Source: Stegostoma tigrinum (taxonomy: Eukaryota). Taken from it: a stretch of 64,000 bases of DNA. The stretch is taken from the NCBI RefSeq assembly GCF_030684315.1, contig NC_081379.1:39323947-39387946 (forward strand), in the 5' to 3' direction. Below are positions 3,051 to 59,841 of the stretch, one piece after another; the first letter of the stretch is position 1, and every line of letters starts with the position of its first letter. The notes under the pieces are model-generated. The model made no database searches. It was not told the DNA's origin and worked only from the letters and a program-made list of their open reading frames with translations. The translations under genes and the position numbers were made by a program.

Positions 3051-4618
3051 GTATCACTATTCCTTACAGCAGTAGTTTTGATTTGGGGGTGGGGGGTCTG
3101 GACCGTTTGTATATCCAAGCTGTCATTCATTACAAATGAAAACTCATTGCAGTTAAGAATGATGTTGTGAATAGCTTGATGCATATTTTTATAGTTATTG
3201 GGAAGATGAATAGTCTAAATGATGAGCAAAATATGAAGAAGGTGGGCTTCATGACAAGAGCTTGGAGTTGGTGGCAGTGATAAGAAAAATCAAAGAAGAG
3301 ATGCCAGTTCAGGAAACTGGTAAAAGCAGCTGACTGGATCTTTTTGGTGACAGAAATCCAAGAATTGGCATTGTTGGAGGTAAAAGGATGAAGGAAGTAG
3401 CGGAAAAGAGGTTTAAGAGGATGACTTGCAGTAAGAGAAAAAGCCAGAGGTTATCTGCGCATTCCAGGGTGATCCTGGAGTAGTAAACAGTTTTAGCAGA
3501 TGATGGCATTACCTAAAGGTACTTTGTGATCCACCCAACTCCTAGTAGTGACTGGTTAAAATGGTTGACCATTATATATGTTTTATGTCCAAGGAACAGA
3601 ATTGAAGAGCCCCAGTTTCACTCTTATCAAAAGGAATGGTCAGGTATAAGTCTCATGGTTTTAATGGGGTGATGGGGGAAAACTATGGTGTCATAAGTAA
3701 ATGTAAGATGAGAGACAGTTGTATTCTACAGTCAACACTTACTAAAACTTGCTGGAGACTCTTCGAATTTATCTTATATAAATTTTATAGTCAGTGTTTA
3801 GAAGGTTGTTTCCTCATACATCTGGATTAGGTGTCAAATCAGGTCCCAGGAATAAAATGTCTAAATCACTCAGGCACCTAGGGTACTTTCTAATGAATAA
3901 AAGAGGATTGTTAACTTTGTGGGCAGTGTTTACTGTGTCGTGGTAGTAGATAACCCAGTGCCAACCATTAAATACTTAAGGTAACTGCATGTTTTCTACC
4001 TTTGTGTTGATTTTATAATTGTTCTATCAGGTCAAATCTGTTGATTTTTAACCTTGGCAGCAAGTGTCGTGGTCTCTCGCCCTTTCAATTATAATTGCTT
4101 CAATCTAGGTGGCCGAGCCACCACTTCCATCTTTGTATCTCTCCGCCTTTCTACTTTGCTTTCCTCCTTTTTCAGAAACCACCTACCTTTTTAGCCAAGT
4201 AAATATCTCCTCAGGTGGCTCAGTGACAATTTTCTTTTTAGTAGTGATCCTGAGAAGTGTTTTGGGGCATTTGAGTAGTGGGCTTCTGCTTCTGGCTTAG
4301 GGAGGAAAAGATCAGCTCAAGTTGCTAGCCCAGTTGAGTGGTGTAATTTGTGAACTTCAGCTGAAGATGACTTAAAGCTGGGATGTGGCACCTCATTCCT
4401 CGGTGTTCACAGTGCGATCATGTGAATGTTTCTCAGTGTATCTGAATTCTCTGGTACCCTGCAGAAGTCAGTATCTTCTGGATGAGAAAGAGTAACAAAA
4501 CTGTGCTGTGTTGAAGTATCTGCTATCGATGAGAAACTAGCTGTTTTAATTTCATCCTTGAACTTTTTCCCCCCACAGGATCTGATAACAGCTCTGATAC
4601 CAATCATTTCTTTTTCAG

Positions 4619-4768
4619 GGAGAAACTGCTTATATTAGAGTTCGTGCAGACAAGCCCAGAAGTTCTAGTTACGGCAGGTCAAGATCAAGGTCCCTTTCTA
4701 GAGGTCGTTATTCTCCCTATCAAAGTAGAAGCTCCCCTCGGTATTCACCGAGACCCCAATATAGATGA
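4619..4768 (+). CDS. SRSF9: SRSF9 (SRp30c) last coding exon; rest of the gene lies left of the window
   Basis: Acceptor tctttttcag, then [49 protein letters not shown] (TGA 4766-4768). Matches the end of RRM2 plus the short RS tail of SRSF9 (human GETSYIRV...SPYQSRGSP). Convergent with GATC as in human. Confidence 0.93.
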
Positions 4769-10059: not shown

Positions 10060-10705
10060 GGTGTTCCGCAAGCTTGCTTTTGCCAGTCAATGCATTGACT
10101 ATAGGAGCTGGGAGGTTCTGTTGTGGCTGTACAGGACATTAGTTAGGCCATTTTCACAATACCATGTGCAACCCTGGTCTCCCTCCAATAGGAAGGATGT
10201 TGTGAAAACTGAAAGGGTTAAGAAAATATTTACAAGGATGTTGCCAGGGTTGAGGGTTTGAGCTGTAAGGAGAGGCTGAATAGGTTGGGACAATTTTCCC
10301 TGGAGCAGCAGGGGCTGAGCGGTGACCTTATAGAGGTTTATAAAATCTTCAGGGGCATGGTTAGGGTGAATAGGCACGGTCTCCTCCCCCCCCCCAGCCA
10401 GTATTGGGCTGGCATGGGAAGAGAATCCAAAAATAGAGGCCATAGGTTTAAGGTGAGAGGGAATGACTTAAAAGGGACCTACAGGGGAAACTTTTTCACA
10501 CAGAGGGTGGTGCGTGCATGGATTAAGCTGCCAGAGGAAGTGGTGGAGGCTGGTACAAATACAACATTTAAAAGGCATCTGGATGGATATATGAACAGGA
10601 AGGGTTTAGAGGGATATGGGCCAAATGCTGGCAAATGGCACTAGAAAGATATCTGGTCAGCATGGATGAGTTAAGACTGAAGGGTCTGTTTCCATGCTCT
10701 GACTA
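10060..10705 (+). mobile_element. CR1/HER1-type LINE 3' fragment nested in a minus-strand CR1/L2-group LINE (~9945-10035 and ~10710-11520)
   Basis: LYRTLVRP...WSP...RMLPGL, ERLNRLGQFSLE...GDLIEVYKI and NFFTQRVVRAW. Flanks match the WLESYLAHR family on the minus strand. Confidence 0.85.
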
Positions 10706-11225
10706 TGTCAAAAGCAACTCTCCCTCACTTCTTCTGGAGTTCAGCCTAATTTACCATGTTTGAACCAAGGCTGCAATAAGATCAGGAGCTGAGTGGCCCT
10801 GGCAGAACCCAAACTGAGCTGGTTATTATTGAACACATGCTGTCTAATGGCATCGTGAAGCCATCCCTTTACTGATAACGAACAGTGAGAAGTAGGGGTG
10901 GGAATTGAGCCAATATTTAGAGGGATATGGGCCAAATGCTGGCAAATGGCACTAGAAAGATATCTGGTCAGCATGGATGAGTTAAGACTGAAGGGTCTGT
11001 TTCCATGCTCTGACTATGTCAAAAGCAACTCTCCCTCACTTCTTCTGGAGTTCAGCCTAATTTACCATGTTTGAACCAAGGCTGCAATAAGATCAGGAGC
11101 TGAGTGGCCCTGGCAGAACCCAAACTGAGCTGGTTATTATTGAACACATGCTGTCTAATGGCATCGTGAAGCCATCCCTTTACTGATAACGAACAGTGAG
11201 AAGTAGGGGTGGGAATTGAGCCAAT
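10605..11225 (+). repeat. Direct tandem duplication of 310 bp
   Basis: 10605-10914 and 10916-11225 read identical by eye (tttagagggatatggg ... ggaattgagccaat). Confidence 0.92.
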
Positions 11226-12213: not shown

Positions 12214-12317
12214 CTGGAGGTGCGACAAGGTATCCCTCTACAACCTGTTTCACATTGCTCAGGATTGCATCTGCACAGTAACCTTCCGTGACCGTGTCTG
12301 CACGCAGATACAATGGC
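12214..12317 (-). CDS. GATC: GATC exon 4
   Basis: cacag|(R)PLYLRADTVTEGYCADAILSNVKQVVEGYLVAPP(G)|gtacgt. 104 nt, phases 2/1 consistent with neighbours. Confidence 0.95.
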
Positions 12318-13607
12318 CTGTGTGATAAAATAGAAATGTTTTGAGAACGGATTTGAAAGGTACTATAGCTGTAGTCCATTGATCCCTCAGATCAGTGATA
12401 AGACAACTCTACAAGAACAGAGGAACTTGGAGCAGGAGTAGATTACAGTAAATCTCCATTTGACATTAACTTAGCAACATTGGTTTTGTGTTAATGAAGC
12501 CTATAATTTCACTGAGCATCCTTATGTTTGTTTTTGCATCACGTCCTGTGTGGTCCAACTGGCACCATTCTGAAGGTGCCTCTCCCACTGATTTGCAGCA
12601 TCTGCCTGTGCTTAACGCTCCGACATGTAACGTCTCCCCTTTCTGGCCCCACCCTGAAACTGAACCTCCTGCGTCCTGACTGACCCACTCGCCACTTCAT
12701 TCTCCTGACTGTGCATTCTTGTTCAAGATCCAGGTCCAATTCCAGAGCCCCAGGAGTTATGAAAGTGTGGATCCCAATAGTGCAGAAGTCCCAAGCTGGG
12801 ACCTCTTTAATCCATGTGTTTTTATAAATTCTAGTTGAGCTCTGCTTCTCACCAGCACCCATGTCCACTGCCCTTATTGACAGTGGAAGTTCTAGAGTGC
12901 ACATGACAAGCTGAAGCTAGGGCACATTGATAAGAACGTCTGCCTGTCTGTTTCCAGCGCTCTCTTCTGTGCCACGTTTGCAGCCTCCATTGGTCCCCTG
13001 TTCAAAGGCCTTAGGGTGAGATGTCCCCCATTCCCTGCATCGATACTCCCTTTTCCATCTCAACCAATCTTGACTCTGGAAAATAAAAGCCAAATCCTGG
13101 AGGATGCTGGAAATCTGAAATAAAAACAGAAAAGGCTGGAAATTCCCAGCAGGTCTGATTACCATCTGCAAAGAGAGAAACATTTCAAGCCAATGACCTG
13201 CTTAACATTCACAGGGTTTTTTGTTATATTTTAACTATGTTTTTGTCACTGGTTGATTGTATGCATTACCCGCTGGTTTACGGACATAAAATTCAAATCA
13301 ATCTGCCTAAATTAAATGCAAAGTCTTCGGGATTAAAATATTTGTATCGACAGTCCTGGGTGCACATTCATGGTCAGCACATTGGAGCTTTTTCACGGGA
13401 AATCTTTCCAATTTAATCTTAATTGTGCAGTTTTCTGAGATAGTGAGCCTGGAATCAATGACAGACCACCTCTGGTGCTGAATTCGTTCATAAATAGTAA
13501 TGAGATACCTTGTGCTGTCCTGTACTCTCTGACGGACACAGAAGACTCTGATAGGATATATTTCTTGATTCCCAATAAGCCATTCGTCAAGTTATTGACC
13601 ACTGAGC

Positions 13608-13915
13608 ATGGTGGTTCAGTGGCTAGCACTGCTGCCTCACAGAGCCAGGGACCCAGGCTCAATTCTACTTTCGCTTGACCGTGTATGGTGTTTTGCACAT
13701 TCTCCCCTTGTCTGCATGGGTTTTCTCCAGAAGTTCCAGTTTAAAGATGTGCAGGTTAGGTGGATCGGCCATGCTAAATTGCCCATAGTGTCCAGGAATG
13801 TACAGGCTAGGTGGATTAGCCATGGGCAATGCAGGGTTACAGGGATAGGGTGAGAGGACCAATGTGGACTCGATGTGCCAAATGACCTGCTTCCACATTG
13901 TAGGGATTCTATGAT
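13608..13915 (+). mobile_element. HE1-like tRNA-derived shark SINE
   Basis: ggtggttcagtggctagcactgctgcctcacag head, ggccatgctaaattgccc body, gtagggattctatgattcta tail. Confidence 0.8.
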
Positions 13916-15409
13916 TCTAAGTTCTCTCAGTAAAGTGAAACAAAAGTGAACACTTCTCGATGACAATACTTCACAACATCCCTGCATCTCCTTCAAAACA
14001 ATTCAGAGCCAAGGCCCCTCTCTCTTTCAAAAATAACAGTTCTTCAGCACTTTGAACGACAGTATGATGAAGAGCCAAGTGAGAAAGTCAGCATTTGGAA
14101 TGCTCACATGGAGCACAGTCTCTCTCCCTCAAGCATCTCAATCCTGATTATCCCAGGCCCAAGAGATGTCAGGTTGGAACCCAAATACGCTGGAGATAAA
14201 CCAGCAAGAAAAAATTAGGCAGCTTTCCACTGCAGCCAGGAACACTCGCCCTAATGAGGCTTGGACTTTGGAAAATGAATCGGTCTCAAGCCAAAGCTAG
14301 GAGAGGTGAAGAGCTGGGTCTTAACACGCATTTAAAAAAAAACACCTCTGGGTGTTAAAGGGGTTTAGGTTGGGAAGTCTAGAACATGTGGCCCAACTGT
14401 TTAAAGGCCTAGCTATAGTGGCATCTGAGCACCAGGATCATCAGCACACAAACTGGCAATAGGGTGGGGGTGAGTGTGTGGGAGGGGTGGTTAGAGACAG
14501 CACATTAAAGGGTGCAATTTCCAAAGCAGCACTGTTCCCAAGACCTCAGAGAGTGCCATACCCACGTTTCTGACAAAGCCTGGTGTTACATCAGTGGGAG
14601 CTCAAGTTCAGTTCTGTACCCAGTCTGACTTCCCACTGCAAACAGAAGGATTGTCAATGGTATACACAGTCTTTCACATTTGCACAACTGATAATCCCAT
14701 TTTAGTTAACCTATTTCATTCTGTTACCTGACCAAAAAGGCAAATGCATCCACAATTTGTGAATTCTGTAATACAACCGTGGGGATAACTATTGCCTGCG
14801 TGTCCCCAAATTTATTAGAAGATAGAACAAGACACAACTGCACAGGATCAGTGAAACATTGCACATCAAGCTATCTACATTAGTGACATCTTTCACAAAA
14901 ACACATAGGGTTATGAATTAGTAATTTCAAAAGAGTGAAACAGGAGGAAAGTAAGAGATAATAAGAGATCATTGATATCCATGTTGCTATAAGCATGACC
15001 TCTTGAGCATTGTTGTTCTAACAGCTCCATTATTTGCGGTCGATGCCTCCAGCAGCCGAGGTCCTAATCTCTGGAATTCTGTCCATAGATCTCCCCATTA
15101 CTCTCTCTAATCTCCTTAAGATCTACCACTTTGGCCAAGATTTTGATAGTATCGCTGCAATAGATTTTCTGGTCAATAAGTTCTATACCAACAACAGTTT
15201 TCGTTTGTATAGCACTTTTAACATAGTAAAACGTAGCAATTGCTTCACAGGACCAAAACGGACACTGAACCAAAGGTTAGGTGACCAACACGAAGGAGTG
15301 TTTTAAAGGTAAAGAGATTTAAGGAGGAAATTTCATAACTTATAGCTGCTACATTTTATAGATTTATCAGCATAAAATATTTCACTTGCTTGTACAACTT
15401 TTTATAATC

Positions 15410-15710
15410 TGGTTCTGGGAGTTGGGTGTCACTAGCCAGGCCTGCATTTATTGTCCATCTCTAATTGCTCAGCGGGCAGTGAGGAGTCAACCACATTGCT
15501 GTGTATCACATGTAGGCCAGACTGGGTAAGAAGGACAGATTTCCTTCCCTAAAAAGGACATTAATGAACCAGGTGGGTTTTTAACAACAATTGACATGGT
15601 CGCCATTATTTTGATCTAATTCACCATCTGCCTTGGTGGGATTCGAACCCAGATCCCTCAACACATTGGCCTGGGATTCTGAGCGACTCACGCAGTGACC
15701 CCACCACCTC
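15410..15710 (-). mobile_element. tRNA-derived SINE (possibly SacSINE1-like)
   Basis: Core gagtcaaccacattgctgtg...cacatgtaggccagac shared with 19430-19760 and 48715-48975; tRNA-like gggattcgaaccc end. Confidence 0.6.
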
Positions 15711-15784
15711 CCCTCACAGTCTAACTCTGTTGGTCTCTTGCGTTCTCGTTAATTTACCATCAGTTAAGACAGAGATACCATTAC

Positions 15785-15945
15785 CTGTCCTCCAGCACTG
15801 AATCCATGGGCTCCACTCCCTCAGTGTCAACAGCATGCAGCTGGTTGGCAAACTGTATGGCATTTGCTAGCCTTTCTATACCCTCCTGGTTCCGAAAATC
15901 AACAAGTGCCAATCGTTCCAGGTGGTCAATCATCTCCATGGTAAC
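15785..15945 (-). CDS. GATC: GATC exon 3
   Basis: ctctag|[53 protein letters not shown](R)|gtaatg. Core of glutamyl-tRNA(Gln) amidotransferase subunit C; 161 nt. Confidence 0.96.
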
Positions 15946-16520
15946 CTAGAGTTTGTTGACATGAAAACACGTGGAGCACATTAAATCATTATAAATCTCT
16001 GCCTGGCATAGCAGGTAAATACTGTACCACAGAACCAGAGTTTATCACTGGTCTGTGCCAGGTTGAAGCAGTGGAGGTACTGTGTCCCTGGACTATGGAA
16101 GGGGAAAACTTTTGAATGTTTTCTGTATCTTTAATAAGTGACCAGTTGTATGCACCAACTTTTATATTTCCTCCCTTTCTCACCTGAAAGCACCAGTTTC
16201 CTAACTATTTCTACTGTCAACGGGTCCCTGTGTCCATTCACATCCAAGCTGCCTTCAGTGTGAAGTCTTGACTGTTTATTTAGGGTGCCTGGATTTAAAA
16301 GTTCATTTCAAGTCTGCCCACACTTTCACCGCAATTGGGGGATTGCTGGAGAGTTAAGGAATCAATGAATCTGCTTTCTCACCCAGGGATGGTGAGCAAT
16401 CCTATCGTTGCACAGACCAGGGTCAAACTCACAGCCTCCCGGATCAACGTGGCTCTCAGTTAGAGGATTAGCGACCCACAGGTATGGTTTTCCACTGTTT
16501 TCCAACAAACGCTTCCTTAC

Positions 16521-16571
16521 CTCTGGAAGCTCGCTGACCTCTGCAGGCTGCCAGGATGGAGTCTGAGGCAC
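16521..16571 (-). CDS. GATC: GATC exon 2 (51-nt mini-exon)
   Basis: ttgttcttag|VPQTPSWQPAEVSELPE|gtaagg. Phase 0/0, joining exon 1 to exon 3 in frame. Confidence 0.85.
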
Positions 16572-16679
16572 CTAAGAACAAAATCAAGAATAGAAATCTA
16601 AACCAGAGCAGATTGGTGCCAAACGTAGCTGAGTGGTCATCAATTGCCTGGCCACGGGCATGAAGACCGACCAGTTAGA

Positions 16680-17080
16680 GAAGATGGCGCCTGGTATGGA
16701 GGGAAGGTCTTACCAGGAAAGGCTGAGGGACTTGAGGCTGTTTTCGTTAGAGAGAAGAAGGTTGAGAGGTGACTTAATTGAAACATATAAAATAATCAGA
16801 GGGTTAGATAGGGTGGATAGGGAGAGCCTTTTTCCTCGGATGGTGATGGCGAGCACGAGGGGGCATAGCTTTAAATTGAGGGGTGAGGGAATGGAACGCT
16901 TTGCCTGCAACAGTAGTAGATTCGCCAACTTTAGGTACATTTAAGTCGTCATTGGATAGGCATATGGATGTACATGGAATAGCGTAGGTTAGATGGGCTT
17001 GAGATCGGTATGACAGGTCGGCACAACATCGAGGGCCGAAGGGCCTGTACTGTGCTGTAATGTTCTACGTTCTATGTTCT
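16680..17080 (+). mobile_element. Young CR1-type LINE 3' end
   Basis: MAPGMEGRSYQERLRDLRLFSLERRRLRGDLIETYKIIRGLDRVD, with a (gttctat)n tail. Confidence 0.88.
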
Positions 17081-17375
17081 ATGGCAGCAGCGCCTTTTAT
17101 CTTCAAAACAGACAAGGAAATTAGGCCATGAACAAAGTTTCAATGCAGACATTACACAGTATCTACAGATCAGGCAGAGTGCGACCCAATAATGTATCAG
17201 GGACACAGGATCAAGGGGGCTAGTGGAAAAAAAAAGTGACGGGGAAGCTTTAGCAGATGTTGAAGCAGTGATCATCGATTGATCATTCATCCAGATTCAG
17301 GGGTGGGGGGAATCCGAGTGTGATCCGGATTCAGAGGGTGATCCAGATTCATGGGGTGATCTGGATTCAGGGGAA

Positions 17376-18950
17376 GATCTGGAATGTGATCCAGGTTCAG
17401 TTGGGGAGGGAGAGAATCTGGAATGTGATCCAGGATCAGTTGGGGGGGGAATCTGGAATGTCATCCAGGATCAGTTGGGGGGGGTATCTGGAATGTGATC
17501 CAGATTCAGTTGGGGGGGAATCTGGAATGTCATCCAGGATCAGTTGGGGGGGGGTATCTGGAATGTGATCCAGGCTCAGTTGGGGGGGGAGAGAATCTGG
17601 AATGTGATTCAGGTTCAGTTGGGGGGGGGAGAATCTGGAATGTGATCCAGGTTCAGTTGGGGGGGGAGAGAATCTGGAATGTGATCCAGAATCAGTTGGG
17701 GGGGGGAGAGAATCTGGAATGTGATCCAGGATCAGTTGGGGGGGAATCTGGAATGTGATCCAGGATCAGTTGGGGGGGGGGTATCTGGAATGTGATCCAG
17801 AATCAGTTAGGGGGGAGAATCTGGAATGTGATCCAGGATCAGTTGGGGGGGGTATCTGGAATGTGATCCAGGTTCAGTTGGGGGAGAGAATCTGGAATGT
17901 GATCCAGGATCAGTTGGGGGGGGAATCTGGAATGTGATCCAGGATCAGTTGGGGGGGGGGGGAATCTGGAATGTGATCCAGGATCAGTTGGGGGGAGAAT
18001 CTGGAATGTGATCCAGGATCAGTTGGGGGGGGGTATCTGGAATGTGATCCAGGATCAGATGGGGGGGGGAGAATCTGGAATGTGATCCAGGATCAGTTGG
18101 GGCGGGGAGAGAATCTGGAATGTGATCCAGGATCAGTTGGGGGGGTATCTGGAATGTGATCCAGGTTCAGTTGGGGGGGGAGAGAATCTGGAATGTGATT
18201 CAGGTTCAGTTGGGGGGGAGAGAATCTGGAATGTGATCCAGGATCAGTTGGGGGGGAGAATCTGGAATGTGATCCAGGATCAGTTGTGGGGGGGGACAGA
18301 ATCTGGAATGTGGTCCAGGATCAGTTGGGGGGGGGGTATCTGGAATGTGATCCAGGTTCAGTTGGGGGGGAGAATCTGGAATGTGATCCAGGATCAGTTG
18401 GGGGGGAATCTGGAATGTGATCCAGGATCAGTTGGGGGGGGGTATCTGGAATGTGATCCAGGATCAGTTGGGGGGGGGGAGAATCTGGAATGTGATCCAG
18501 GATCAGTTGGGGCGGGGAGAGAATCTGGAATGTGATCCAGGATCAGTTGGGGGGGTATCTGGAATGTGATCCAGGTTCAGTTGGGGGGGGAGAGAATCTG
18601 GAATGTGATTCAGGTTCAGTTGGGGGGAGAGAATCTGGAATGTGATCCAGGATCAGTTGGGGGGGAGAATCTGGAATGTGATCCAGGATCAGTTGGGGGG
18701 GGGACAGAATCTGGAATGTGGTCCAGGATCAGTTGGGGGGGGGGGTATCTGGAATGTGATCCAGGTTCAGTTGGGGGGGAGAATCTGGAATGTGATCCAG
18801 GATCAGTTGGGGGGGAATCTGGAATGTGATCCAGGATCAGTTGGGGGGGGGAAATCTGGAATGTGATCCAGGATCAGTTGGGGGGGGGGATCTGGAATGT
18901 GATCCAGGATCAGTTGGGGGGGGGGATCTGGAATGTGATCCAGGATGTGA
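17376..18950. repeat. Minisatellite in GATC intron 1, ~36-40 bp unit, roughly 40 copies
   Basis: Unit gaatctggaatgtgatccaggatcagtt followed by a variable G run. Confidence 0.97.
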
Positions 18951-19019
18951 TCTACATTACTGGGATTATCCCGATTCCGGGAGGTTTGGGGAACCGGGAA
19001 TGTGATCCCGGTCTGGGCC

Positions 19020-19330
19020 TCTCCAGCCCCGGGGGTGGGGAGAATGTGACTGGCGGCTGGAGGCCGTCGCCCGCAGCTCCATCCCCGGGCCCTTACCTTA
19101 CTGCGGCCCGGATCCTCAGGCCTCCCGCCGCCGGGCCCGGGCGGTCTCTCACCAGCGGCAGTCCGCGGATTCTGCGGCCTCGGGCCCAGGCGCCGGGACA
19201 GCGGCACCGAGCGAGCGGCTCTCCTGGCGAAGCTCCACATCCCCCGGGGCCGAGACAGCGCTTCAGGAGCCGCCCCCCCCCTAGCGGCTGTGAGCCCGGG
19301 GACAGTGAGCGGGGCCTGGGCCTGGTCCCT
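19020..19330. promoter_or_regulatory. CpG island / GATC promoter-exon 1 region
   Basis: GC- and CpG-dense stretch in an otherwise CpG-depleted window. Confidence 0.75.
19097..19240 (-). CDS. GATC: GATC exon 1 (mitochondrial presequence-like)
   Basis: ATG at 19240: MWSFARRAARSVPLSRRLGPRPQNPRTAAGERPPGPGGGRPEDPGRSK, donor AAG|gtaagg. Arg-rich N-terminus within a CpG island. The five exons join to 522 nt (173 aa). Confidence 0.85.
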
Positions 19331-24551: not shown

Positions 24552-24945
24552 TGAGGGTAGGGGGGGGCACAGTGAGGTTCACCGGAGGGAGGGGGGGAAG
24601 GGTAGAGGGGGCGCACAGTGAGGTTCACCGGAGGGAGGGGGGGGAAGGGTAGAGGGGGGGCACAGTGAGGTTCACCGGAGGGGGGGAAGGGTAGGGGGGG
24701 CACAGTGAGGTTCACCGGAGGGAGGGGGGAAGGGTAGGGGGGGTGCACAGTGAGGTGCACCAGAGGGGGGGGGGGAAGGGTAGAGGGGGGGGCACAGTGA
24801 GGTTCACTGGAGGGGGGGGGAAGGGTAGAGGGGGGGCACAGTGAGGTGCACCGGAGGGGGGTGGGGAGGGTAGGGGGGGGTGCACAGTGAGGTGCACCAG
24901 AGGGAGGGGGGGGAAGGGTAGAGGGGGGGCACAGTGAGGTGCACC
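24552..24945. repeat. G-rich minisatellite, ~36-42 bp unit, ~10 copies
   Basis: Unit gcacagtgaggttcaccggag(G-run)aagggtagaggggg. Confidence 0.95.
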
Positions 24946-25047
24946 TGGGCAGTTGGATGTGTGCACTGAGAGATTTACCCAGTGGGTGGGAGAGTGGGCC
25001 AAGTGAGATTTACCCGGGGAGGGGGCACAGTGAGATTTATCTATGTG

Positions 25048-25859
25048 GGGAGCTCAGTGTGATTTAAGAGGGGGTAGAGAGGGAGCACAGTGTGATTTAA
25101 GAGGGGGTAGAGAGGGAGCACAGTGTGATTTAAGAGGGGGTAGAGAGGGAGCACAGTGTGATTTAAGAGGGGGTAGAGAGGGAGCACAGTGAGATTTAAG
25201 AGGGGGTAGAGAGGGAGCACAGTGAGATTTAAGAGGGGGTTGAGAGGGAGCACAGTGTGATTTAAGAGGGGGTAGAGAGGGAGCACAGTGAGATTTAAGA
25301 GGGGGTAGAGAGGGAGCACAGTGAGATTTAAGAGGGGGTAGAGAGGGAGCACAGCGTGATTTAAGAGGGGATAGAGAGGGAGCTCAGTGTGATTTAAGAG
25401 GGGGTAGAGAGGGAGAACAGTGAGATTTAAGAGGGGGTAGAGAGGGAGCACAGTGTGATTTAAGAGGGGATAGAGAGGGAGCTCAGTGTGATTTAAGAGG
25501 GGGTAGAGAGGGAGCACAGTGAGATTTAAGAGGGGGTAGAGAGGGAGCACAGTGAGATTTAAGAGGGGGTAGAGAGGGAGCACAGTGAGATTTAAGAGGG
25601 GGTAGAGAGGGACCACAGTGAGATTTAAGAGGGGGTAGAGAGGGAGCACAGCGTGATTTAAGAGTGGATAGAGAGAGAGCACAGTGTGATTTAAGATGGA
25701 GTAGAGAGGGAGCACAGCATGATTTAAGAAGGGATAGAGAGGGAGCTCAGTGTGATTTAAGAGGGGGTAGAGAGGGAGCACAGTGTGATTTAAGAGGGGG
25801 TAGAGAGGGAGCACAGCGTGATTTAAGAGGGGGTAGAGAGGGAGCACAGTGAGATTTAA
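25048..25859. repeat. Minisatellite, 33-bp unit, ~24 copies
   Basis: Unit gggagcacagtg(t/a)gatttaagagggggtagaga. Gives the 11-aa periodic spurious ORF LPLYPLLNHTV. Confidence 0.97.
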
Positions 25860-32220: not shown

Positions 32221-33686
32221 GCCTTCACAGAAGCAGAAAGAGGCACAGACAGATTAAATGCACAGTCAAAACGCGGGTAAAGGTGGTCGTCCAATTTAAC
32301 AAAGGGTACCATATTTTCTAGAGGATGAACAGCTAGAAACGCTGGCAATCCAAACAGAGTTCTGAAGGATCATCGTTGATCTGAAACTTCAACTATGGTT
32401 CTCTCCAGAGAAAACTGATCTGACTGCCTGAGTATTTCTAGCTAGTTTAGTTTTTATTTCAGATGTCCAGTGTATATATTATTTGTGTGGAGGTCTGAAG
32501 AGAATTGTGGCTACAGGTACATAAATCATTAAAACACCATGAACAGATTCAAAACTTCCCATGGAACCCTGGTCTTTAATATCAAACAAACTGACAGACA
32601 AGGGGATAGGGATGCTTCAACGATACAAAGTCCTGGTTGTACAACACCTGGAGTACCACAAGCCATTCCAGAAGGGTCTAGGCCCGAAACGTCAGCTTTT
32701 GTGATCCTGAGATGCTGCTTGGCCTGCTGTGTTCATCCAGCTTCACACTTCGTTATCTTGGATTCTCCAACATCTGCAGTTCCCATTATCCCTCTCCCAG
32801 ACACATCTTAGGAAGGAGCACCACAGAGGCATTACCGGAATAACCTTGGACTCCAAGGCTTAAATTCTGAGGAGATATTACACAAACTATGCTTGTGTTC
32901 CCTGAGGTTCAAAAGACTGGAGGATAATTTGATAAAGGAAATAAATAGGGTAGTGTCAACAACGGCTAAGTTGTTAGCACTTCTGTTTGTGTTCCCAGGT
33001 CCAAAGCAACCAGGGATGGTACTTCACAGCAGTAGAAGAGAAACTAAATGACAAAAGACCAAAGAACAAACCTAGGAACTTCTTCCCGGAACAATAATAA
33101 AGTTCCCTTTGCCCTCACTTTCATCATATCTACAAATGCTCATTCCCAAGATTGTTCTCTGCCATTTCTGGTGTGATGTTACACCAAATATCTTTCCCGG
33201 TCAGCATTCCAAAGGGATAGTTTTCTCCACAGCACCCTGGTCCACTCCTCCACTTCTCACAGCAGCTTGCCATGTGAGTGCAGGTACATAAAACACCTGC
33301 CGTTCACCTCCTCCCTTCTCTGCCCAAACATCCCTTCCAGGTGAAAGAGCAATTTACTCGTACTCCTTTCAATATAGTATACTGTAACCACTGCTCACAT
33401 TGTGGTCTGTTTTACATCAGAAAGGGCGATTATGATTCAAAACAGCTTGATTTGACTGGTGACCTACCAGTGCAACATTTTGCTCTCTCACGGTGCTTTG
33501 TCTGCAGCTGCGTTCCAATAAAGCTCAATGCAAACTTATTATCTTTTGAGTAGGCACTTTATAGCATATGCATGTATATAAAATCAAAATAGGTAGCTGA
33601 ACCATAAGTTGATTTTACCAATGACACAAACCTGAAGGAAATTTTTTTTAAATTGCAAGAACAGGAAAGTTTAAGATAATACATTA

Positions 33687-33750
33687 CAGTCGGTTCTGCT
33701 ATAAATGCACTACAGATCATGTTTCACTAACACAATTTGGTTTTTAATCT
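33687..33750 (+). mobile_element. Isolated Tigger/pogo-type terminal inverted repeat
   Basis: TA|CAGTCGGTTCTGCTATAAATGC is the inverted match of the element end at 37246 (reverse complement TA|CAGTCGGTTCTGTTACAATGC). Confidence 0.75.
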
Positions 33751-34658
33751 CTTGGTTCTAATTTCTTTAACAGGGCTGACATGTTAGATGGAGTAAAAAC
33801 AAAATACACAAGAATGTAACGACAAGAAGAAAAATAAACTGCTAGTTCTACAAGTGAGAGACACCCACTGGGTTTAAATCAGAGAGGGCAGGATGCAGGC
33901 TGCTGAATATCATCACATCAGGACAATTAGTGATCTGTGACAGGCAAAATTAAGTAGAATCTTTGAAGATGGAATCCAGAAAGAAACTGTCCCATTCCAG
34001 CATTCACTTCGATCAGTGTGACAGGAACACATGGACCTCAGATGCATGTTCTCATATTAAATTTAAACCATATATTTTTGATCACATTTAAGATGCAAGA
34101 TTTAAAACAAAAATATGTAAACGGCCGGCACAATTTTTAAAATCCTGTTCTGAAGATGTCCAGGTAAAGTGACATAATGCACTTGTTATACTGTGCACTT
34201 TAGTTCTGTAGCAGAATAAGTATCAGTACATAAACCCATGTATGAAGCTGCATTCGTTAATGATCTTCATCCTTAAACATATGAAGTTGCTTGATACCAG
34301 GAGTGTCCAAAGCTTTAGGTCCAAACTTAGGTCATGGCGCACACACGGTTCCTCGCTGTCCAATATAAAGGTTAAATGAATATTCCGGTTAATTGATGTT
34401 GACATTTTCATTTAGCGTTTATTGCCAAATGCACCTTTTCTAAATCTCCAAGATCATAAAATTTAAATAGTATGGAATATGCAATACTAAACTGAAACCA
34501 AGTTGATTGGACTTTGTGGGTTCAATCGCCAGAAGTTGTGGGCCATCATATGGACACTCTAGCTTTACATGGACATTCTACACTGAACGACCTTCCAAGT
34601 ATTCAGGTTTATAGCAAAAACATTGGCTGTCAAACATGAAACGGAAACAAAAACGCAC

Positions 34659-34822
34659 CAGAGACAATGACCCTGAAATCTGATCTGCGGGCAGCTGGTC
34701 CTGGTCTTCCTCTAGATCCACCGCCGACTCCGCCAACTCCTCTGCCTCTCTGGAATTCCACCCGTAAACGATAGACTCCATAATCATAACCATTTCTTCC
34801 ATAGACTGCGTCTTGTGCATCT
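34659..34822 (-). pseudogene. SRSF9: Orphan SRSF9-type exon 2 (end of RRM1, Gly linker, start of RRM2) with intact splice sites
   Basis: ttggcag|(R)[54 protein letters not shown](G)|gtgcgt. 164 nt, phases 2/1. GRNGYDYG and RRSDFRV point to SRSF9 rather than SRSF1. No exon 1 or 3 found on this strand. Identity is confident; pseudogene status is not. Confidence 0.75.
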
Positions 34823-35392
34823 CTGCCAATGCAAGGGGGGAGGAAGAAGTTAAGCCACAATTTTCCATCTATTTGGAAATTTCCTCCTATGTGTAACTCA
34901 AGGAAAGATCCAGTCAAAGTTGCCACCAACAGGATGTCTGTAATTGATCTATTTATTTCAGATGCTCCAGAGGATTCCCAGCGGAGAAGTAAACGGATGG
35001 TCCTGTTGGCTGAACAACGTCATCACAAGCTGCAAAGGTACACAGGTATATCAGCACAAAAAGAACTTTGGAGCTGAACCTAGAAAAAGAATACAATTTT
35101 TTTCAATTAAAAAAGGTTATGTTTCGAGGGTGGAGGGTCCTTCTGAACTTTATTGAACTAGGCTGATCATTTAGTACGAGTCCAACACACAGCTGAGTTT
35201 ACTACAATATTAGAATTGCACAATTTGTCTTCTGTCTCCAAAGCTTCTAACTGACTACAGTATAGAGGCTGTAAATGCACAATTCACAGACGTCATAGTG
35301 CTAAATTTTAATACTACATCCAATTAAAATTGTGACAAACATTTATTGTATATAGAGAAATTTTAAGATGTACAAATGCTGATAAAGTACTA

Positions 35393-35621
35393 CTAATAAT
35401 AGGGATAACAGCGTGAAGCTGGATGAACGTAGCAGGCCAAGCAGCATCAGAGCAGCAGGAAAGCTGACGTTTCAGGTCTGAACCCTTTTTTTGAAGAAGG
35501 GTCCAGACCCAAAGCATCAGCCTTCCTGCTCCTCTGATGCTGCCTGGCCTGCTACGTTCATCCAGCTCTACACCTTCTTATCTCAGATTCTCCAGCATCT
35601 GCAGTTCCTTCTAATTATAGG
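35393..35621. mobile_element. Palindromic short element (Penelope-tail family)
   Basis: ~85-bp inverted arms centred near 35490. Imperfect TSD ctaataatagg / ctaattatagg. Confidence 0.75.
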
Positions 35622-35623
35622 CA

Positions 35624-37246
35624 CAATCGGTTCTGCTACAACGTGATTGCTGCATTCCTGCGCAACATTGCATTACAGAAAATCGTGCTATAGCAATAAT
35701 GGAGCCTATGGGAAAAGTGGGGTTTGGCAGACCACCAAAAATAAACCAAAATCACTCAAAAGACTAACACAAAGGATAGTACAGCTTGAATAAGTGTTTT
35801 AATCATACTTAATAAATGAAATAAAAGTAAATTTAACACATTACCTTGACAACACATTAAGTTGACTTGACAGGGGAGGAGGTTTTGAGGTTGCTCTGTT
35901 GTTAATGCAGGGACTGAGGGTCATCATCGTCACCACTTTCAGGTGCAGTTGTGGTTGCAGGTTTAGGGTGAAAAATAGTTAATCCAGAAGTGGACGACTG
36001 TGGTTCATTGCTTTCCAACTGTTTCTTGGGGGTTGGCTTAGAAAAGACATTCAGTTTTTGTTGGTTTGCCCTTTCTCTCTGTTCATGAAGAAGCTTTTCA
36101 TAGGGTGCCAAATAAGACCTTATTCCACGAACTGCAACCCTGCTGCGTTCTGCATTATAATCGGTATCCTCTAAGAGTCGCAACTGTTTCTGAATTTCCC
36201 TCAGGATTGAAGACAAAACAGAAGTGGAAAGCTCTTGTGGTGCTGCATCCTGAACTACTTCAACTTCATCTCCAGCTTCCACTTCCCGCTCAGCGACAAG
36301 TTGTTGTAGATCAGCTGTAGAGAGATCTTCACAGTGGCCTTCTTCGTCAATTAATTTTACTATGGCAGGAAATGCCATTGCATGCTCCGCGTCTGCATTG
36401 GCAGCTTTGCCACATAACTTTATGTTATGAAAAGCATAGCGGTTCTTAAAACCAGCAAACCAGCCACTGCTAGCACTAAATGCAGGCACATCTGCAGGAT
36501 TTTCAGCTTTTTTTGTTAAATCTTCATAAATTGATAAGGCTTTCTCTTTTATGCTGAGAAAAGTGGTCCCAGATTGCTTTTTCATTTGATCTTCTATCCA
36601 TACACTTAGAAGGCGCTCCATCTCCTCAAGCTCCTTTGTCCGTGACCTCATAGATTTGCTAGCGCTCAGACTTGTTCCAGCAATATAACTTGCTTTGATT
36701 TTTTCGGCATTGTCTCTAATGGTGCGTAAGGTGGACTCCTTTATTCCTGTTACACGAACTATATCGCATGTTCTCTCATTACGCTCAAAACGCTTTATAA
36801 CATCTAGCTTCTCTTCCAGTGTTATAGCCTTTCTCTTACGTTCACCACCTGCAATTTTATCACCAGGACGCTTCCTGCTAACATTCTTGTCACTTTGTCC
36901 TCGCATTTTTGTGGGTAACACAGCAGAATTTGCAAAAATAAAACAAATATCACGGAGTACCGTACCCCTCACAGTAAGTGCTTCGCGCCAAAATCTGCGA
37001 AATGATCATGTGATGCTGGCGGGGAGACTCTTTTCAGCACTAACACTGCACATGCTCAGGACAAAGCTCGCAAAACAATCATGTCATGTTAACGTGACGG
37101 GAGATGTCGACGTGTATTCTGTGCACCCGATCGAATCGCTTCGTAACCAACACACATGTGCATTTTAGAAATAGCGCTCCCGTATTCTTTAGTCACATTA
37201 TAGCCAATTCGCATTGCTAGAACACGCATTGTAACAGAACCGACTG
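35624..37246 (-). mobile_element. Tigger/pogo DNA transposon, internally deleted
   Basis: TIRs caatcggttctgctacaacg (35624) and cattgtaacagaaccgactg|ta (37246) enclose a transposase-derived ORF. Confidence 0.9.
35902..36906 (-). CDS. Tigger-derived ORF, 334 aa: CENP-B-type HTH plus Tc5 HTH, DDE catalytic domain missing
   Basis: ATG at 36906 (aaaATG). RKRKAITLEEKLDVIKRFE...STLRTI, EMERLLSVWIEDQ...IKEKA and FSASSGWFAGFKNR are present. The ORF jumps from IDEEG to HCEDLSTADLQQL without the FNxDETG/DDE region. Confidence 0.7.
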   Translation of the reverse strand: MRGQSDKNVSRKRPGDKIAGGERKRKAITLEEKLDVIKRFERNERTCDIVRVTGIKESTLRTIRDNAEKIKASYIAGTSLSASKSMRSRTKELEEMERLLSVWIEDQMKKQSGTTFLSIKEKALSIYEDLTKKAENPADVPAFSASSGWFAGFKNRYAFHNIKLCGKAANADAEHAMAFPAIVKLIDEEGHCEDLSTADLQQLVAEREVEAGDEVEVVQDAAPQELSTSVLSSILREIQKQLRLLEDTDYNAERSRVAVRGIRSYLAPYEKLLHEQRERANQQKLNVFSKPTPKKQLESNEPQSSTSGLTIFHPKPATTTAPESGDDDDPQSLH

Positions 37247-37667: not shown

Positions 37668-37820
<153 letters not shown>

Positions 37821-38119
37821 TCATTTGCATAGTTATTTAAAAATAAACAAAAACAGAACAAAGAAAATTTGATACTTCAGTCAGTAAATGGTTAATAATA
37901 AAACCTTGACTCTCTCTCCCACAATCTCACACCCAGTGCAATGCAGTCAGGGGTGCTAATTTTTCAAATTAAAATGTTGAAAACTTCAAATGGTTGCAAA
38001 TACCCCACGAGCGTTATTTGAAGAGTATGGGAGTTCCTCTGCCTGCCTTCAGCAGTATACAACCACAAAAATAATGAACAGATTATTTATCACATTGTTT
38101 GCAAGAACATTTACATAAA

Positions 38120-39440
38120 ATGACCAACACCTTCCACCCCAACCTTAAGTTCACCTGGACCATCTCTAACACCTCCCTCACCTTACTGGACCCCTCTGTC
38201 TCCATCTCAGGCAATCACCTGGAAACTGATATCCATTTCAAGCCCACCGACTCGCACAGCTGCCTAGAATACACCTCCTCCCACCCACCCTCCTGCAAAA
38301 ATGACATTCCCTATTCCCAATTCCTTCGCCTCCGCCGAATCTGCTCCCAGGATGAGGCACTTCACTCCCGTAAATCTCAGATGTCCTCGTTTTTTCAAGG
38401 ACCGCAACAGCCCCCCTGCAGTGGTCGATAGCGCCCTCGACCGTGTCCCTCGCATTTCCCACAACTCATCCCTCACACCCCGTCCCCGCAACAACAACCA
38501 AAACAGAATCCCCCTCGTCCTCGGGTACCACCCCACCAACCTCCGGATCTAACGCGTCATCCTCCGACACTGCCGCCATCTGCAATCCGACCCCAACCCC
38601 AAAGATATTTATCCACCCCCCATCCCTTGTCTGCCTTCCAGAGGGACCACTCTCTCTGTAACTCTCTTGTCCACTCCACACTCCCCGCCAACCCCATGAC
38701 ACCTGGCACTTTTCCCCGCAACTGCAGGAAGTGCTACACCTGACCCCACACCTCCCCCCTCACTCCCATCCCAGGCGCCAAGAAAATTTTCCACATCAAG
38801 CAGACGTACACCTGCACATATGCCAATGTGGTACACTGCATCCGCTGTTCTCATTGTGGCCTCCTCTACATTGGGGAAACCAAGCGGAGGCTTGGAGACC
38901 GCTTTGCAGAACACCTCCGCTCAGTTCGCAATAAACAGCTGCACCTCCCAGTTGCAAACCATTTCCACTCCCCCTCCCATTCTTTAGATGACATGTCCAT
39001 CATGGGCCTCCTGCAGTGCCACAACGATGCCACCCGAAGGTTGCAGGAACAGCAACTCATATTCCGCTTGGGAACCCTGCGGCCCAATGGTGTCAATGTG
39101 GATTGCACAAGCTTCAAAATCTCCCCTCCACGTACCGCATCCCAAAACTAGCCCAGCTCATCCCCACCTCCCTAACCTGTTCGTCCTCTCACCCATCCCC
39201 TCCTCCCACCTCAAGCCCCACCCCCATCTCCTACCTACTAACCTCACCCACCGCCATGACCTGTCCGTCCTCCCTGGACTGACTTAACTCCTCCCTAACC
39301 TCTCCACTTACACTCACCTTTACTGGCTCCATCCCCGCCACTTTGACTTGTCTGTCTCCTCTCCACCTATCTTCTCCTCTATCCATCTTCGATCCGCCTC
39401 ACCCTCTCTCCCTATTTATTTCAGAACCCCCTTCCCCCTC
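38120..39440 (+). mobile_element. Penelope-like element (RT C-terminus and GIY-YIG) in the TRIAP1 intron
   Basis: TNTFHPNLKFTWTIS...KPTDSHSCLEYTSSHP...IPYSQFLRLRRICS and VHCIRCSHCGLLYIGETKRRLGDRFAEHLRS. Frameshifted. Confidence 0.9.
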
Positions 39441-39470
39441 CCCTCCCCCCCCCTCTCCCCTCCCCCCCCC

Positions 39471-39984
39471 NNNNNNNNNNNNNNNNNNNNNNNNNNNNNN
39501 NNNNNNNNNNNNNNNNNNNNNNNNNNNNNNNNNNNNNNNNNNNNNNNNNNNNNNNNNNNNNNNNNNNNNNNNNNNNNNNNNNNNNNNNNNNNNNNNNNNN
39601 NNNNNNNNNNNNNNNNNNNNNNNNNNNNNNNNNNNNNNNNNNNNNNNNNNNNNNNNNNNNNNNNNNNNNNNNNNNNNNNNNNNNNNNNNNNNNNNNNNNN
39701 NNNNNNNNNNNNNNNNNNNNNNNNNNNNNNNNNNNNNNNNNNNNNNNNNNNNNNNNNNNNNNNNNNNNNNNNNNNNNNNNNNNNNNNNNNNNNNNNNNNN
39801 NNNNNNNNNNNNNNNNNNNNNNNNNNNNNNNNNNNNNNNNNNNNNNNNNNNNNNNNNNNNNNNNNNNNNNNNNNNNNNNNNNNNNNNNNNNNNNNNNNNN
39901 NNNNNNNNNNNNNNNNNNNNNNNNNNNNNNNNNNNNNNNNNNNNNNNNNNNNNNNNNNNNNNNNNNNNNNNNNNNNNNNNNNNN
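39471..39984. other. Assembly gap (514 N) flanked by C/T-only tracts
   Basis: Run of n characters; polypyrimidine at ~39430-39470 and ~39985-40095. Confidence 1.
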
Positions 39985-40098
39985 CCCCCTCTTCCCCTCT
40001 TCCTCTCTCCCTCCCTCCCCCTCTCCCCCTCTTCCTCCCTCCCCCTCTTCCTCTCTCTCCCTCCCCCTCTTCCTCTCTCTCCCCCTCTTCCTCTTTCA

Positions 40099-40284
<186 letters not shown>

Positions 40285-40914: not shown

Positions 40915-40987
40915 CGCCCGAACAGGGACTTGAACCCTGGACCCTCAGATTAAAAGTCTGATGCTCTACCGACTGAGCTATCCGGGC
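40915..40987 (-). tRNA. tRNA-Lys, anticodon TTT (tRNA-Lys3 type)
   Basis: GCCCGGATAGCTCAGTCGGTAGAGCATCAGACTTTTAATCTGAGGGTCCAGGGTTCAAGTCCCTGTTCGGGCG. 73 nt, full cloverleaf, canonical vertebrate sequence. Confidence 0.98.
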
Positions 40988-59748: not shown

Positions 59749-59841
59749 TCAGTGTTCCTCTGCATCTTCCCAGCCAGTGGGCAGAGGATTGGTATGGGGA
59801 TTGTGGAAGAGAGTGTGCTTCCCATCACCCCAAGGGAATGG
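59749..59841 (-). CDS. COX6A1: COX6A1 exon 3
   Basis: catttacag|[33 protein letters not shown]6A signature. Confidence 0.96.

Follow-up and report, generated by a model that had tools for sequence, protein, structure and literature searches.

An SRSF9 exon copy carried at the end of a Tigger transposon behind TRIAP1 in Stegostoma tigrinum

Domesticated pogo/Tigger DNA-binding genes include CENP-B, JRK, TIGD and CENPBD1, and a truncated transposase acting as a repressor is exemplified by Drosophila KP. The elements most closely related to the locus described here belong to the Pack-TIR class, which is already known and includes the co-option into a 3' UTR of an exon together with its introns. 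Specifically, in the portion of Tan et al. 2021 (PMC8277862) used here, the closest relatives are a piece of ERP44, an exon with introns, that was recruited into the 3' UTR of GTF2H5, and the gibbon Pack-Tigger1. That portion also gives the criteria by which Pack-TIRs are recognised, namely an insert of 100-5000 bp, at least 10 bp of element termini on each flank, a target duplication, at least 90% identity to the parent, a length 80-120% that of the parent and no TE within 100 bp. SR genes, for their part, employ unproductive splicing, according to the portion of PMC4379411 consulted.

The window analysed here, 64,000 nucleotides of Stegostoma tigrinum (GCF_030684315.1, NC_081379.1, positions 39,323,947 to 39,387,946), supplies all coordinates below, negative values lying to its left. 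A preliminary description had drawn attention to an apparently orphan, inverted SRSF9 exon 2 at 34659-34822, between TRIAP1 and GATC. The reading that we favour with good confidence is that this exon copy is part of an SRSF9 fragment captured into the right end of a Tigger transposon behind TRIAP1, that it is spliced to Tigger, and that it likely forms the non-coding 3' end of TRIAP1/Tigger and is likely maintained by conversion. No published account of the TRIAP1/Tigger/SRSF9 locus was found in a limited literature collection, and the literature joining TRIAP1, SRSF9 and shark, in the portions available, amounted to a synteny list.

The parent gene, the exon copy and the carrier transposon

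When shark and ray proteins were aligned to 144 kb around the window, SRSF9 exons 1 to 4 fell at about -20339, -3253, -1022 and 4619, all on the + strand, and the gene reads as a complete four-exon, two-RRM SRSF9 orthologue with SRSF9-type sequence. The 164-nt exon 2 at 34822-34659 lies on the - strand, flanked by AG (5') and GT (3'), opposite to the last SRSF9 exon, and no SRSF9 exon 1 or 3 was found on its strand within -60 kb to +84 kb, both as the preliminary description had it. A probe of 34600-34900 had two matches genome-wide, itself and one + strand copy (G000:C34:39320615-39320915) with 301/301 identity. This second match is the true SRSF9 exon 2, situated 3.1 kb left of the window, on the side and strand where the preliminary description had expected it, and 38 kb from the copy, which is inverted relative to SRSF9. 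The exon is therefore duplicated, as had been proposed, but it is neither an orphan nor decaying, as it shows 0 differences from its parent. Nor does it deviate at conserved residues: among 8 protein matches, DAQDA and EFQR occur in 5/5 shark/ray proteins and GPAARRS in 3/5, the remaining two having GPPARRS and GPTARRS, and the residue differences are present only against mammals and coelacanth (identity, 91-96%).

The features of the parent, the captured tract and its carrier are as follows.

4619-4768, + strand: last coding exon of SRSF9, by protein alignment; exons 1-3 lie left of the window
33685-33708, - strand: third, outer Tigger TIR and TA, closing the captured piece, by TIR motif match
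33709-34053, - strand: segment B (intron 2), 305/342 identical, 89% over 33720-34053
34062-35406, - strand: segment A (intron 1 end, exon 2, intron 2 start), 1332/1352 identical, 98.5%
34659-34822, - strand: SRSF9 exon 2 copy, 164 nt, inside a likely non-coding 3' exon
35404-35610, no strand assigned: SINE-like repeat that interrupts the captured piece after 11 bp; target duplication of 11 bp (10/11 matching)
35624-37246, - strand: Tigger/pogo-type DNA transposon, with the left TIR from 37246, TA at 37248-37247 and an inner right TIR ending at 35624

The copied tract, 35621-33709, is larger than the exon alone and is embedded in the transposon. The captured piece is about 2.3 kb of SRSF9, comprising intron 1, exon 2 and intron 2 sequence, and its divergence from the parent is uneven: the core of segment A (34062-35338) has 7 substitutions in 1277 bp (99.4% identity) and the 68-bp 5' edge of that segment has 6, whereas segment B has 21 in 326 bp (core versus segment B, Fisher p 5e-10). 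Between the two segments, 613 bp of the parent are absent, a deletion that species B does not have. A probe from segment B had just 2 matches genome-wide. Within this segment, ATTAAA at 33748-33743 is likely the polyadenylation signal. A TGATGA...CTGA stretch at about 35025-34960 was considered as a snoRNA and rejected, the only Rfam match above the gathering score in 84 kb being one tRNA; within 33600-35500, Rfam gave 5 matches, all at chance level (best E 0.72).

On the - strand the order is TA, left TIR, Tigger, right TIR, SRSF9 piece, second right TIR and TA. The TIR motif matched three times in the window, against 0.00 expected and 0/100 shuffles. Measured as a Pack-TIR, the locus has a 1.9-kb non-TE insert bounded by the TIR that ends at 35624 and the one at 33708-33687, terminal repeats of about 22 bp on both sides, TA at 37248-37247 and 33686-33685, and a unique parent for both probes (98.5% for segment A and 89% for segment B); the length of the copy is about 73% of the parental stretch without the SINE and 83% with it, and near 100% in species B. 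The carrier belongs to a large, old family (1757 candidates, of which 40 were scored; about 80% identity), is 9.6% diverged from the majority of 24 siblings and has an 810-bp in-frame internal deletion.

The two bases between the inner right TIR and the SRSF9 piece are TA in the parent. The SRSF9 piece was likely copied into the right end of Tigger by template switching during repair, at TA microhomology, and a second switch, returning about 22 bp into the TIR, would have left the duplicated terminal repeat. A possible but less probable origin is transposase-driven capture: one-ended transposition, or end bypass, would have linked the right end of Tigger to a TA within SRSF9 intron 1, with later resolution of the composite or its move to the TRIAP1 site. 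The 5' junction exactly at the TIR end plus two bases, and the position of the insert at the element terminus, where gap filling typically concerns internal breaks (PMC8277862, in the portion used), would suit such a course, but no Tigger remains were found at the ends of the parental SRSF9 stretch, the copy is single, and a 2-bp TA equally fits microhomology, the median of which is 2 bp in the same portion of that paper. The choice between transposase and template switching alters the origin and leaves the present anatomy and use unchanged. Under either course the order of Tigger insertion and capture is inferred, since a Tigger-only (empty) site was seen in no species examined.

TRIAP1 (37668-40263), GATC (12313-19240) and COX6A1 (near 59817) are all on the same strand here, and GATC starts in a GC-rich region of its own near 19240. 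The SRSF9 neighbours, which we take to be DYNLL1 and GATC, were named from characteristic motifs. Human TRIAP1 is presumably head-to-head with GATC, and TRIAP1 may have been inverted in one lineage. A tRNA gene (40915-40987, - strand, Rfam 74 bits, anticodon UUU, lysine) lies 650 bp upstream of TRIAP1. In the GATC region, 10605-11225 is an exact 310-bp tandem duplication (100%), either genuine or a slip of assembly. Arrays of minisatellites whose units measure about 33-45 bp occupy 17370-18946 (GATC intron 1), 24554-24948 and 25048-25859 (intergenic), and others surround SRSF9 exon 1 (about -22600 to -17900).

Junctions in other assemblies and likely exchange with the parent gene

We compared 7 of 23 listed sequencing runs with the locus, as contig assemblies, from which strand, transcript ends and expression levels cannot be read. 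The outer junction is spanned with 0 differences by a DNA contig (X4 record 17) that comes from a different sample of the same species. In species B, in which 61 of about 960 flank bases differ from this genome, the outer junction was spanned in two studies (X7 record 25 and X11 record 6), the SINE junction by X11 record 10 and the left TIR by X7 record 31, and X11 has 631 letters between 34053 and 34062, i.e. the piece deleted here. In the X11 graph, a copy arm and a parent arm branch from each end of a single middle contig of 2117 bp; its depth of 22.1, versus 9.6-14.7 in the four arms, agrees with two copies, but the two-copy argument is based on the shape of the graph and the shared alleles, not on depth, and as contig assembly collapses single-base differences, the identity of the two copies of species B is unreadable from the middle contig. 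In species C, X17 reached the SINE junction (record 17), and the outer junction was not seen in X17. A 34-bp match in X11 record 7 (33712-33745, 4 differences) was put aside as likely due to chance.

These junctions place the capture before the split of the species, as judged by the sequences compared. The core identity of 99.4% looks recent and a run of N lies 4 kb away, as would suit a decaying sequence that arose either by neutral duplication not long ago or as an artefact of assembly; yet the flanks of the same tract are only 89% alike, the same junctions occur in species B despite its divergent flanks, and copy-specific alleles appear in independent contigs. We regard a recent or artefactual origin as highly implausible and indeed refuted, because contigs span the junctions in two species, and with it falls the earlier suggestion of a misplaced contig.

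The copy and species B differ at 86 sites, of which 40 were compared with the parent here: 24 are common to both paralogs of this genome, 16 are found in the copy only and no site shows a third state. Both arms of species B have one base and both paralogs here another at 7 sites in 35212-35332, and the species C copy agrees with species B at 6 of the 7. Over 34062-35206 the paralogs differ at 6 sites, compared with 21 between the copy and species B. Parallel mutation was rejected as unreasonable, given the 24/40 shared sites and the 7-site cluster. The paralogs of each species thus appear to share alleles absent from the other species, likely through gene conversion across the 38 kb that separate the inverted repeats. 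Such conversion would run mainly from parent to copy and would be blocked in segment B by the 613-bp deletion; of the changes in segment B, about 12 were assigned to the copy and 6 to the parent. The perfect identity of the exon does not prove that the copy is under selection, because conversion accounts for it. In addition, a captured piece can appear young (99.4%) while predating a species split, as conversion resets identity, and identity-based dating of duplications is biased by such conversion, for which the 613-bp deletion provides a natural control.

The Tigger frame and the proposed TRIAP1/Tigger transcript

The transcribed features are as follows.

34356-34658, - strand: optional intron, 303 nt, which uses the donor of the exon copy itself and an AG that arises from a copy-specific change at 34356
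35080-35844, - strand: 3'-UTR intron, 765 nt, with a GT donor from Tigger and an AG acceptor from SRSF9 intron 1
35902-36906, - strand: open 334-codon frame with CENP-B_N and HTH_Tnp_Tc5 domains
37668-37760, - strand: coding part of TRIAP1 exon 2, stop at 37670-37668, continuing into Tigger as 3' UTR
40117-40263, - strand: TRIAP1 coding exon 1

The 334-codon frame has no DDE domain match, and the two deletions within it, of 810 and 3 nt, are both in frame. It contains 0 stops, while 24/24 siblings have 1-8 over the same columns, and its nonsynonymous/synonymous ratio is 0.25-0.35 versus 0.73-0.91 pooled over these siblings, which are the best-scoring of 40 scored among 1757 candidates (Fisher p 0.0002-0.013 under four filters). 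Subfamily structure was rejected as the cause of the low ratio, which was still 0.32-0.33 after dropping changes found in at least two other copies. The frame shows signs of purifying selection and is likely, to judge from its predicted domains, a domesticated DNA-binding gene or a truncated repressor; if selected, it would be a candidate lineage-specific DNA-binding gene. About 20 ATGs precede its own ATG after the TRIAP1 stop. Both the element and its deletion junction are present in species B, where parts of the frame are covered without a gap (records 12-14), stops being unreadable. Among 28 protein matches, self excluded, there was no ortholog of >75% identity, and a limited literature collection yielded nothing on domesticated Tigger/TIGD in shark. 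Another Tigger copy (L013, G000:C2:72517648-72521540) lacks 744 bp internally, almost at the position of the deletion here, and has 321 codons free of stops.

Two runs of this species, X1 and X5, are not labelled RNA and were treated as RNA-like on the grounds that their contigs skip GT-AG introns and end at the TRIAP1 acceptor. One X1 contig (record 8) enters at the TRIAP1 exon 2 acceptor and runs unbranched into Tigger, and its 126 extra letters beyond that acceptor are likely exon 1; further X1 contigs with copy alleles cross the copy-specific deletion and reach about 33740. In RNA-like contigs from two studies, a GT-AG splice joins 35845 to 35079: a 56-nt contig of X1 and a 909-nt contig of X5 exit at 35081, with loose letters equal to 35847-35872. 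The donor at 35845 is present in the majority of the Tigger family. X5 is also spliced from 34659 to 34355, skipping 303 nt, whereas X1 retains this intron. The splice from 35845 to 35079 was seen in 2/2 runs of this species but not in the single run of species B (X15), whose contigs cross 35845 and 35081 unbroken, and in the single run of species C the break is at 35031, at a neighbouring AG, rather than at 35081; the splice may be species- or tissue-specific.

Towards GATC, 33520-33711 had no cover in 3/3 RNA-like runs examined there. X5 ends at 33746 without a loose end, and X1 and X17 run on into letters of the parent intron; the end of cover above 33712 together with ATTAAA at 33748 gives a weak hint of the 3' end. 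One transcript may run from TRIAP1 exon 1 to about 33720 and be polyadenylated at ATTAAA 33748; no single contig from TRIAP1 exon 1 to 33720 was found among the runs compared. In this arrangement Tigger contributes a donor but no acceptor of its own, and the captured piece adds the acceptor and likely the 3' end. We consider it quite probable that the TRIAP1/Tigger transcript owes its acceptor and 3' end to the captured piece, with the exon riding along, and the coding content of the exon copy is likely a passenger. The exon copy is likely non-coding here, because no ATG occurs in its frame from 35079 onward and it lies 3' of both stops. The locus would be an instance, traceable throughout, in which a DNA transposon has given a host transcript a new 3' end: the donor is the transposon's own, and the acceptor and likely the poly(A) signal come from the captured neighbour.

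Two further contigs were considered separately. X1 record 1 has copy alleles and then, past about 33740 (33720-33740), letters of parent intron 2, likely because the assembly graph took a shortcut along 35 bp common to both. A crossover between the inverted copies would leave the same pattern, but such an inversion was disfavoured, only 35 bp being shared at the switch. The 87 loose letters of X5 at 34824 are a multicopy repeat (19 matches) and were put aside as a likely chimera.

The preliminary description had offered co-option in read-through transcripts as one explanation, which is close to what we find, but the splice seen runs from 35845 to 35079 and not from TRIAP1 exon 1 to 34822. Of the junctions to look for at the exon ends, 34659 to 34355 was seen in X5 and TRIAP1 exon 1 to 34822 was not, exon 1 lying outside the compared stretches. 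A TRIAP1-GATC read-through, perhaps as a rare form, might still include the exon behind TRIAP1 exon 1 as a poison cassette, given that both genes are on the same strand and that reading on from TRIAP1 exon 1 in phase 0 gives an early stop, for which we obtained the same translation as had been reported. We consider this very unlikely, as the unbranched X1 contig enters at the TRIAP1 exon 2 acceptor, SRSF9 exon 1 is the only loose end listed upstream of 34824 (X17), and the interval towards GATC is without cover.

The SRSF9 intron 1 stretch upstream of exon 2 (L008:6400-6750; 35079-34823 in the copy) is conserved in other sharks, on the basis of the read-through N-termini of shark proteins P0003 and P0005, and contains two extra AG acceptors whose use would yield early stops; these likely represent unproductive splicing of SRSF9 in sharks. 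At 4579-4618, about 40 nt upstream of the last SRSF9 exon, there is a candidate second acceptor, and P0002 and P0003 read that exon in another frame.

These acceptors raise the question of a selected regulatory module, in which SRSF9 unproductive acceptors placed behind the TRIAP1 and Tigger stops would route mRNAs to NMD under SR-protein control. NMD is expected where an exon junction lies more than 50-55 nt behind the stop codon, and the first junction here is 57 nt beyond the stop of Tigger and 1.8 kb beyond that of TRIAP1. In SRSF9, use of the acceptors at 35079 and 35029 would yield stops at codons 106 and 66, spliced and retained forms coexist, the piece has been kept in three species, and SR genes are known for splicing of this type. 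Nevertheless, we regard such a module as doubtful: conversion explains the identity to the parent without selection, the splice was not seen in species B, the second acceptor needs a base absent from species B and C, and the use of these acceptors by SRSF9 itself is only predicted. Equally tentative, and to be given little weight, is the broader idea that a transposon transplanted an SR-protein feedback switch, bringing TRIAP1 and a catalysis-dead domesticated Tigger gene under SRSF9-type splicing/NMD control that is updated by conversion. If the splice did trigger NMD under SR-protein control, regulation by unproductive splicing would have moved between unrelated genes by transposon capture. 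The main text of PMC4379411 has no passage on SRSF9, and the portion of PMC9022966 consulted has nothing on SRSF9 poison splicing.

Comparison with known systems

The arrangement favoured here, a captured SRSF9 piece at a Tigger terminus behind TRIAP1, touches three known systems. Like the domesticated genes CENP-B, JRK, TIGD and CENPBD1 and the repressor KP, the carrier keeps CENP-B_N and HTH_Tnp_Tc5 open, with low dN/dS and the catalytic middle deleted; unlike the domesticated pogo/Tigger genes, the shark frame lies in the last TRIAP1 exon behind the upstream ATGs. As in the unproductive splicing of SR genes (Lareau and Brenner 2015, PMC4379411, in the portion consulted), there are conserved intronic acceptors beside an SR exon that lead to early stops, but here the acceptors are used in the 3' UTR of another gene.

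The closest resemblance is to the single-copy animal Pack-TIRs of Tan et al. 2021 (PMC8277862), as presented in the portion used, in which a host exon with flanking introns is carried inside a TcMariner element; the shark piece is likewise single, has its parent in cis, uses a TA target, has the orientation of the host gene and is transcribed as 3' UTR. It is, however, about 2.3 kb long and 38 kb from its parent, whereas the Pack-TIR median is 224 bp, and it lies behind a complete, duplicated TIR (three TIRs) and not at an internal break. Neither "gene conversion" nor "shark" occurs in the main text of that paper. Also unlike the Pack-TIRs described in the portion of PMC8277862 used here, the shark piece is old, common to three species and apparently homogenised with its parent, and its locus combines a splice from a transposon donor to a captured acceptor with a carrier frame showing signs of selection. 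What is new here, relative to this class, is therefore the three-TIR terminal capture, the likely long upkeep by conversion, the transposon-donor/captured-acceptor splice and the apparently selected carrier frame.
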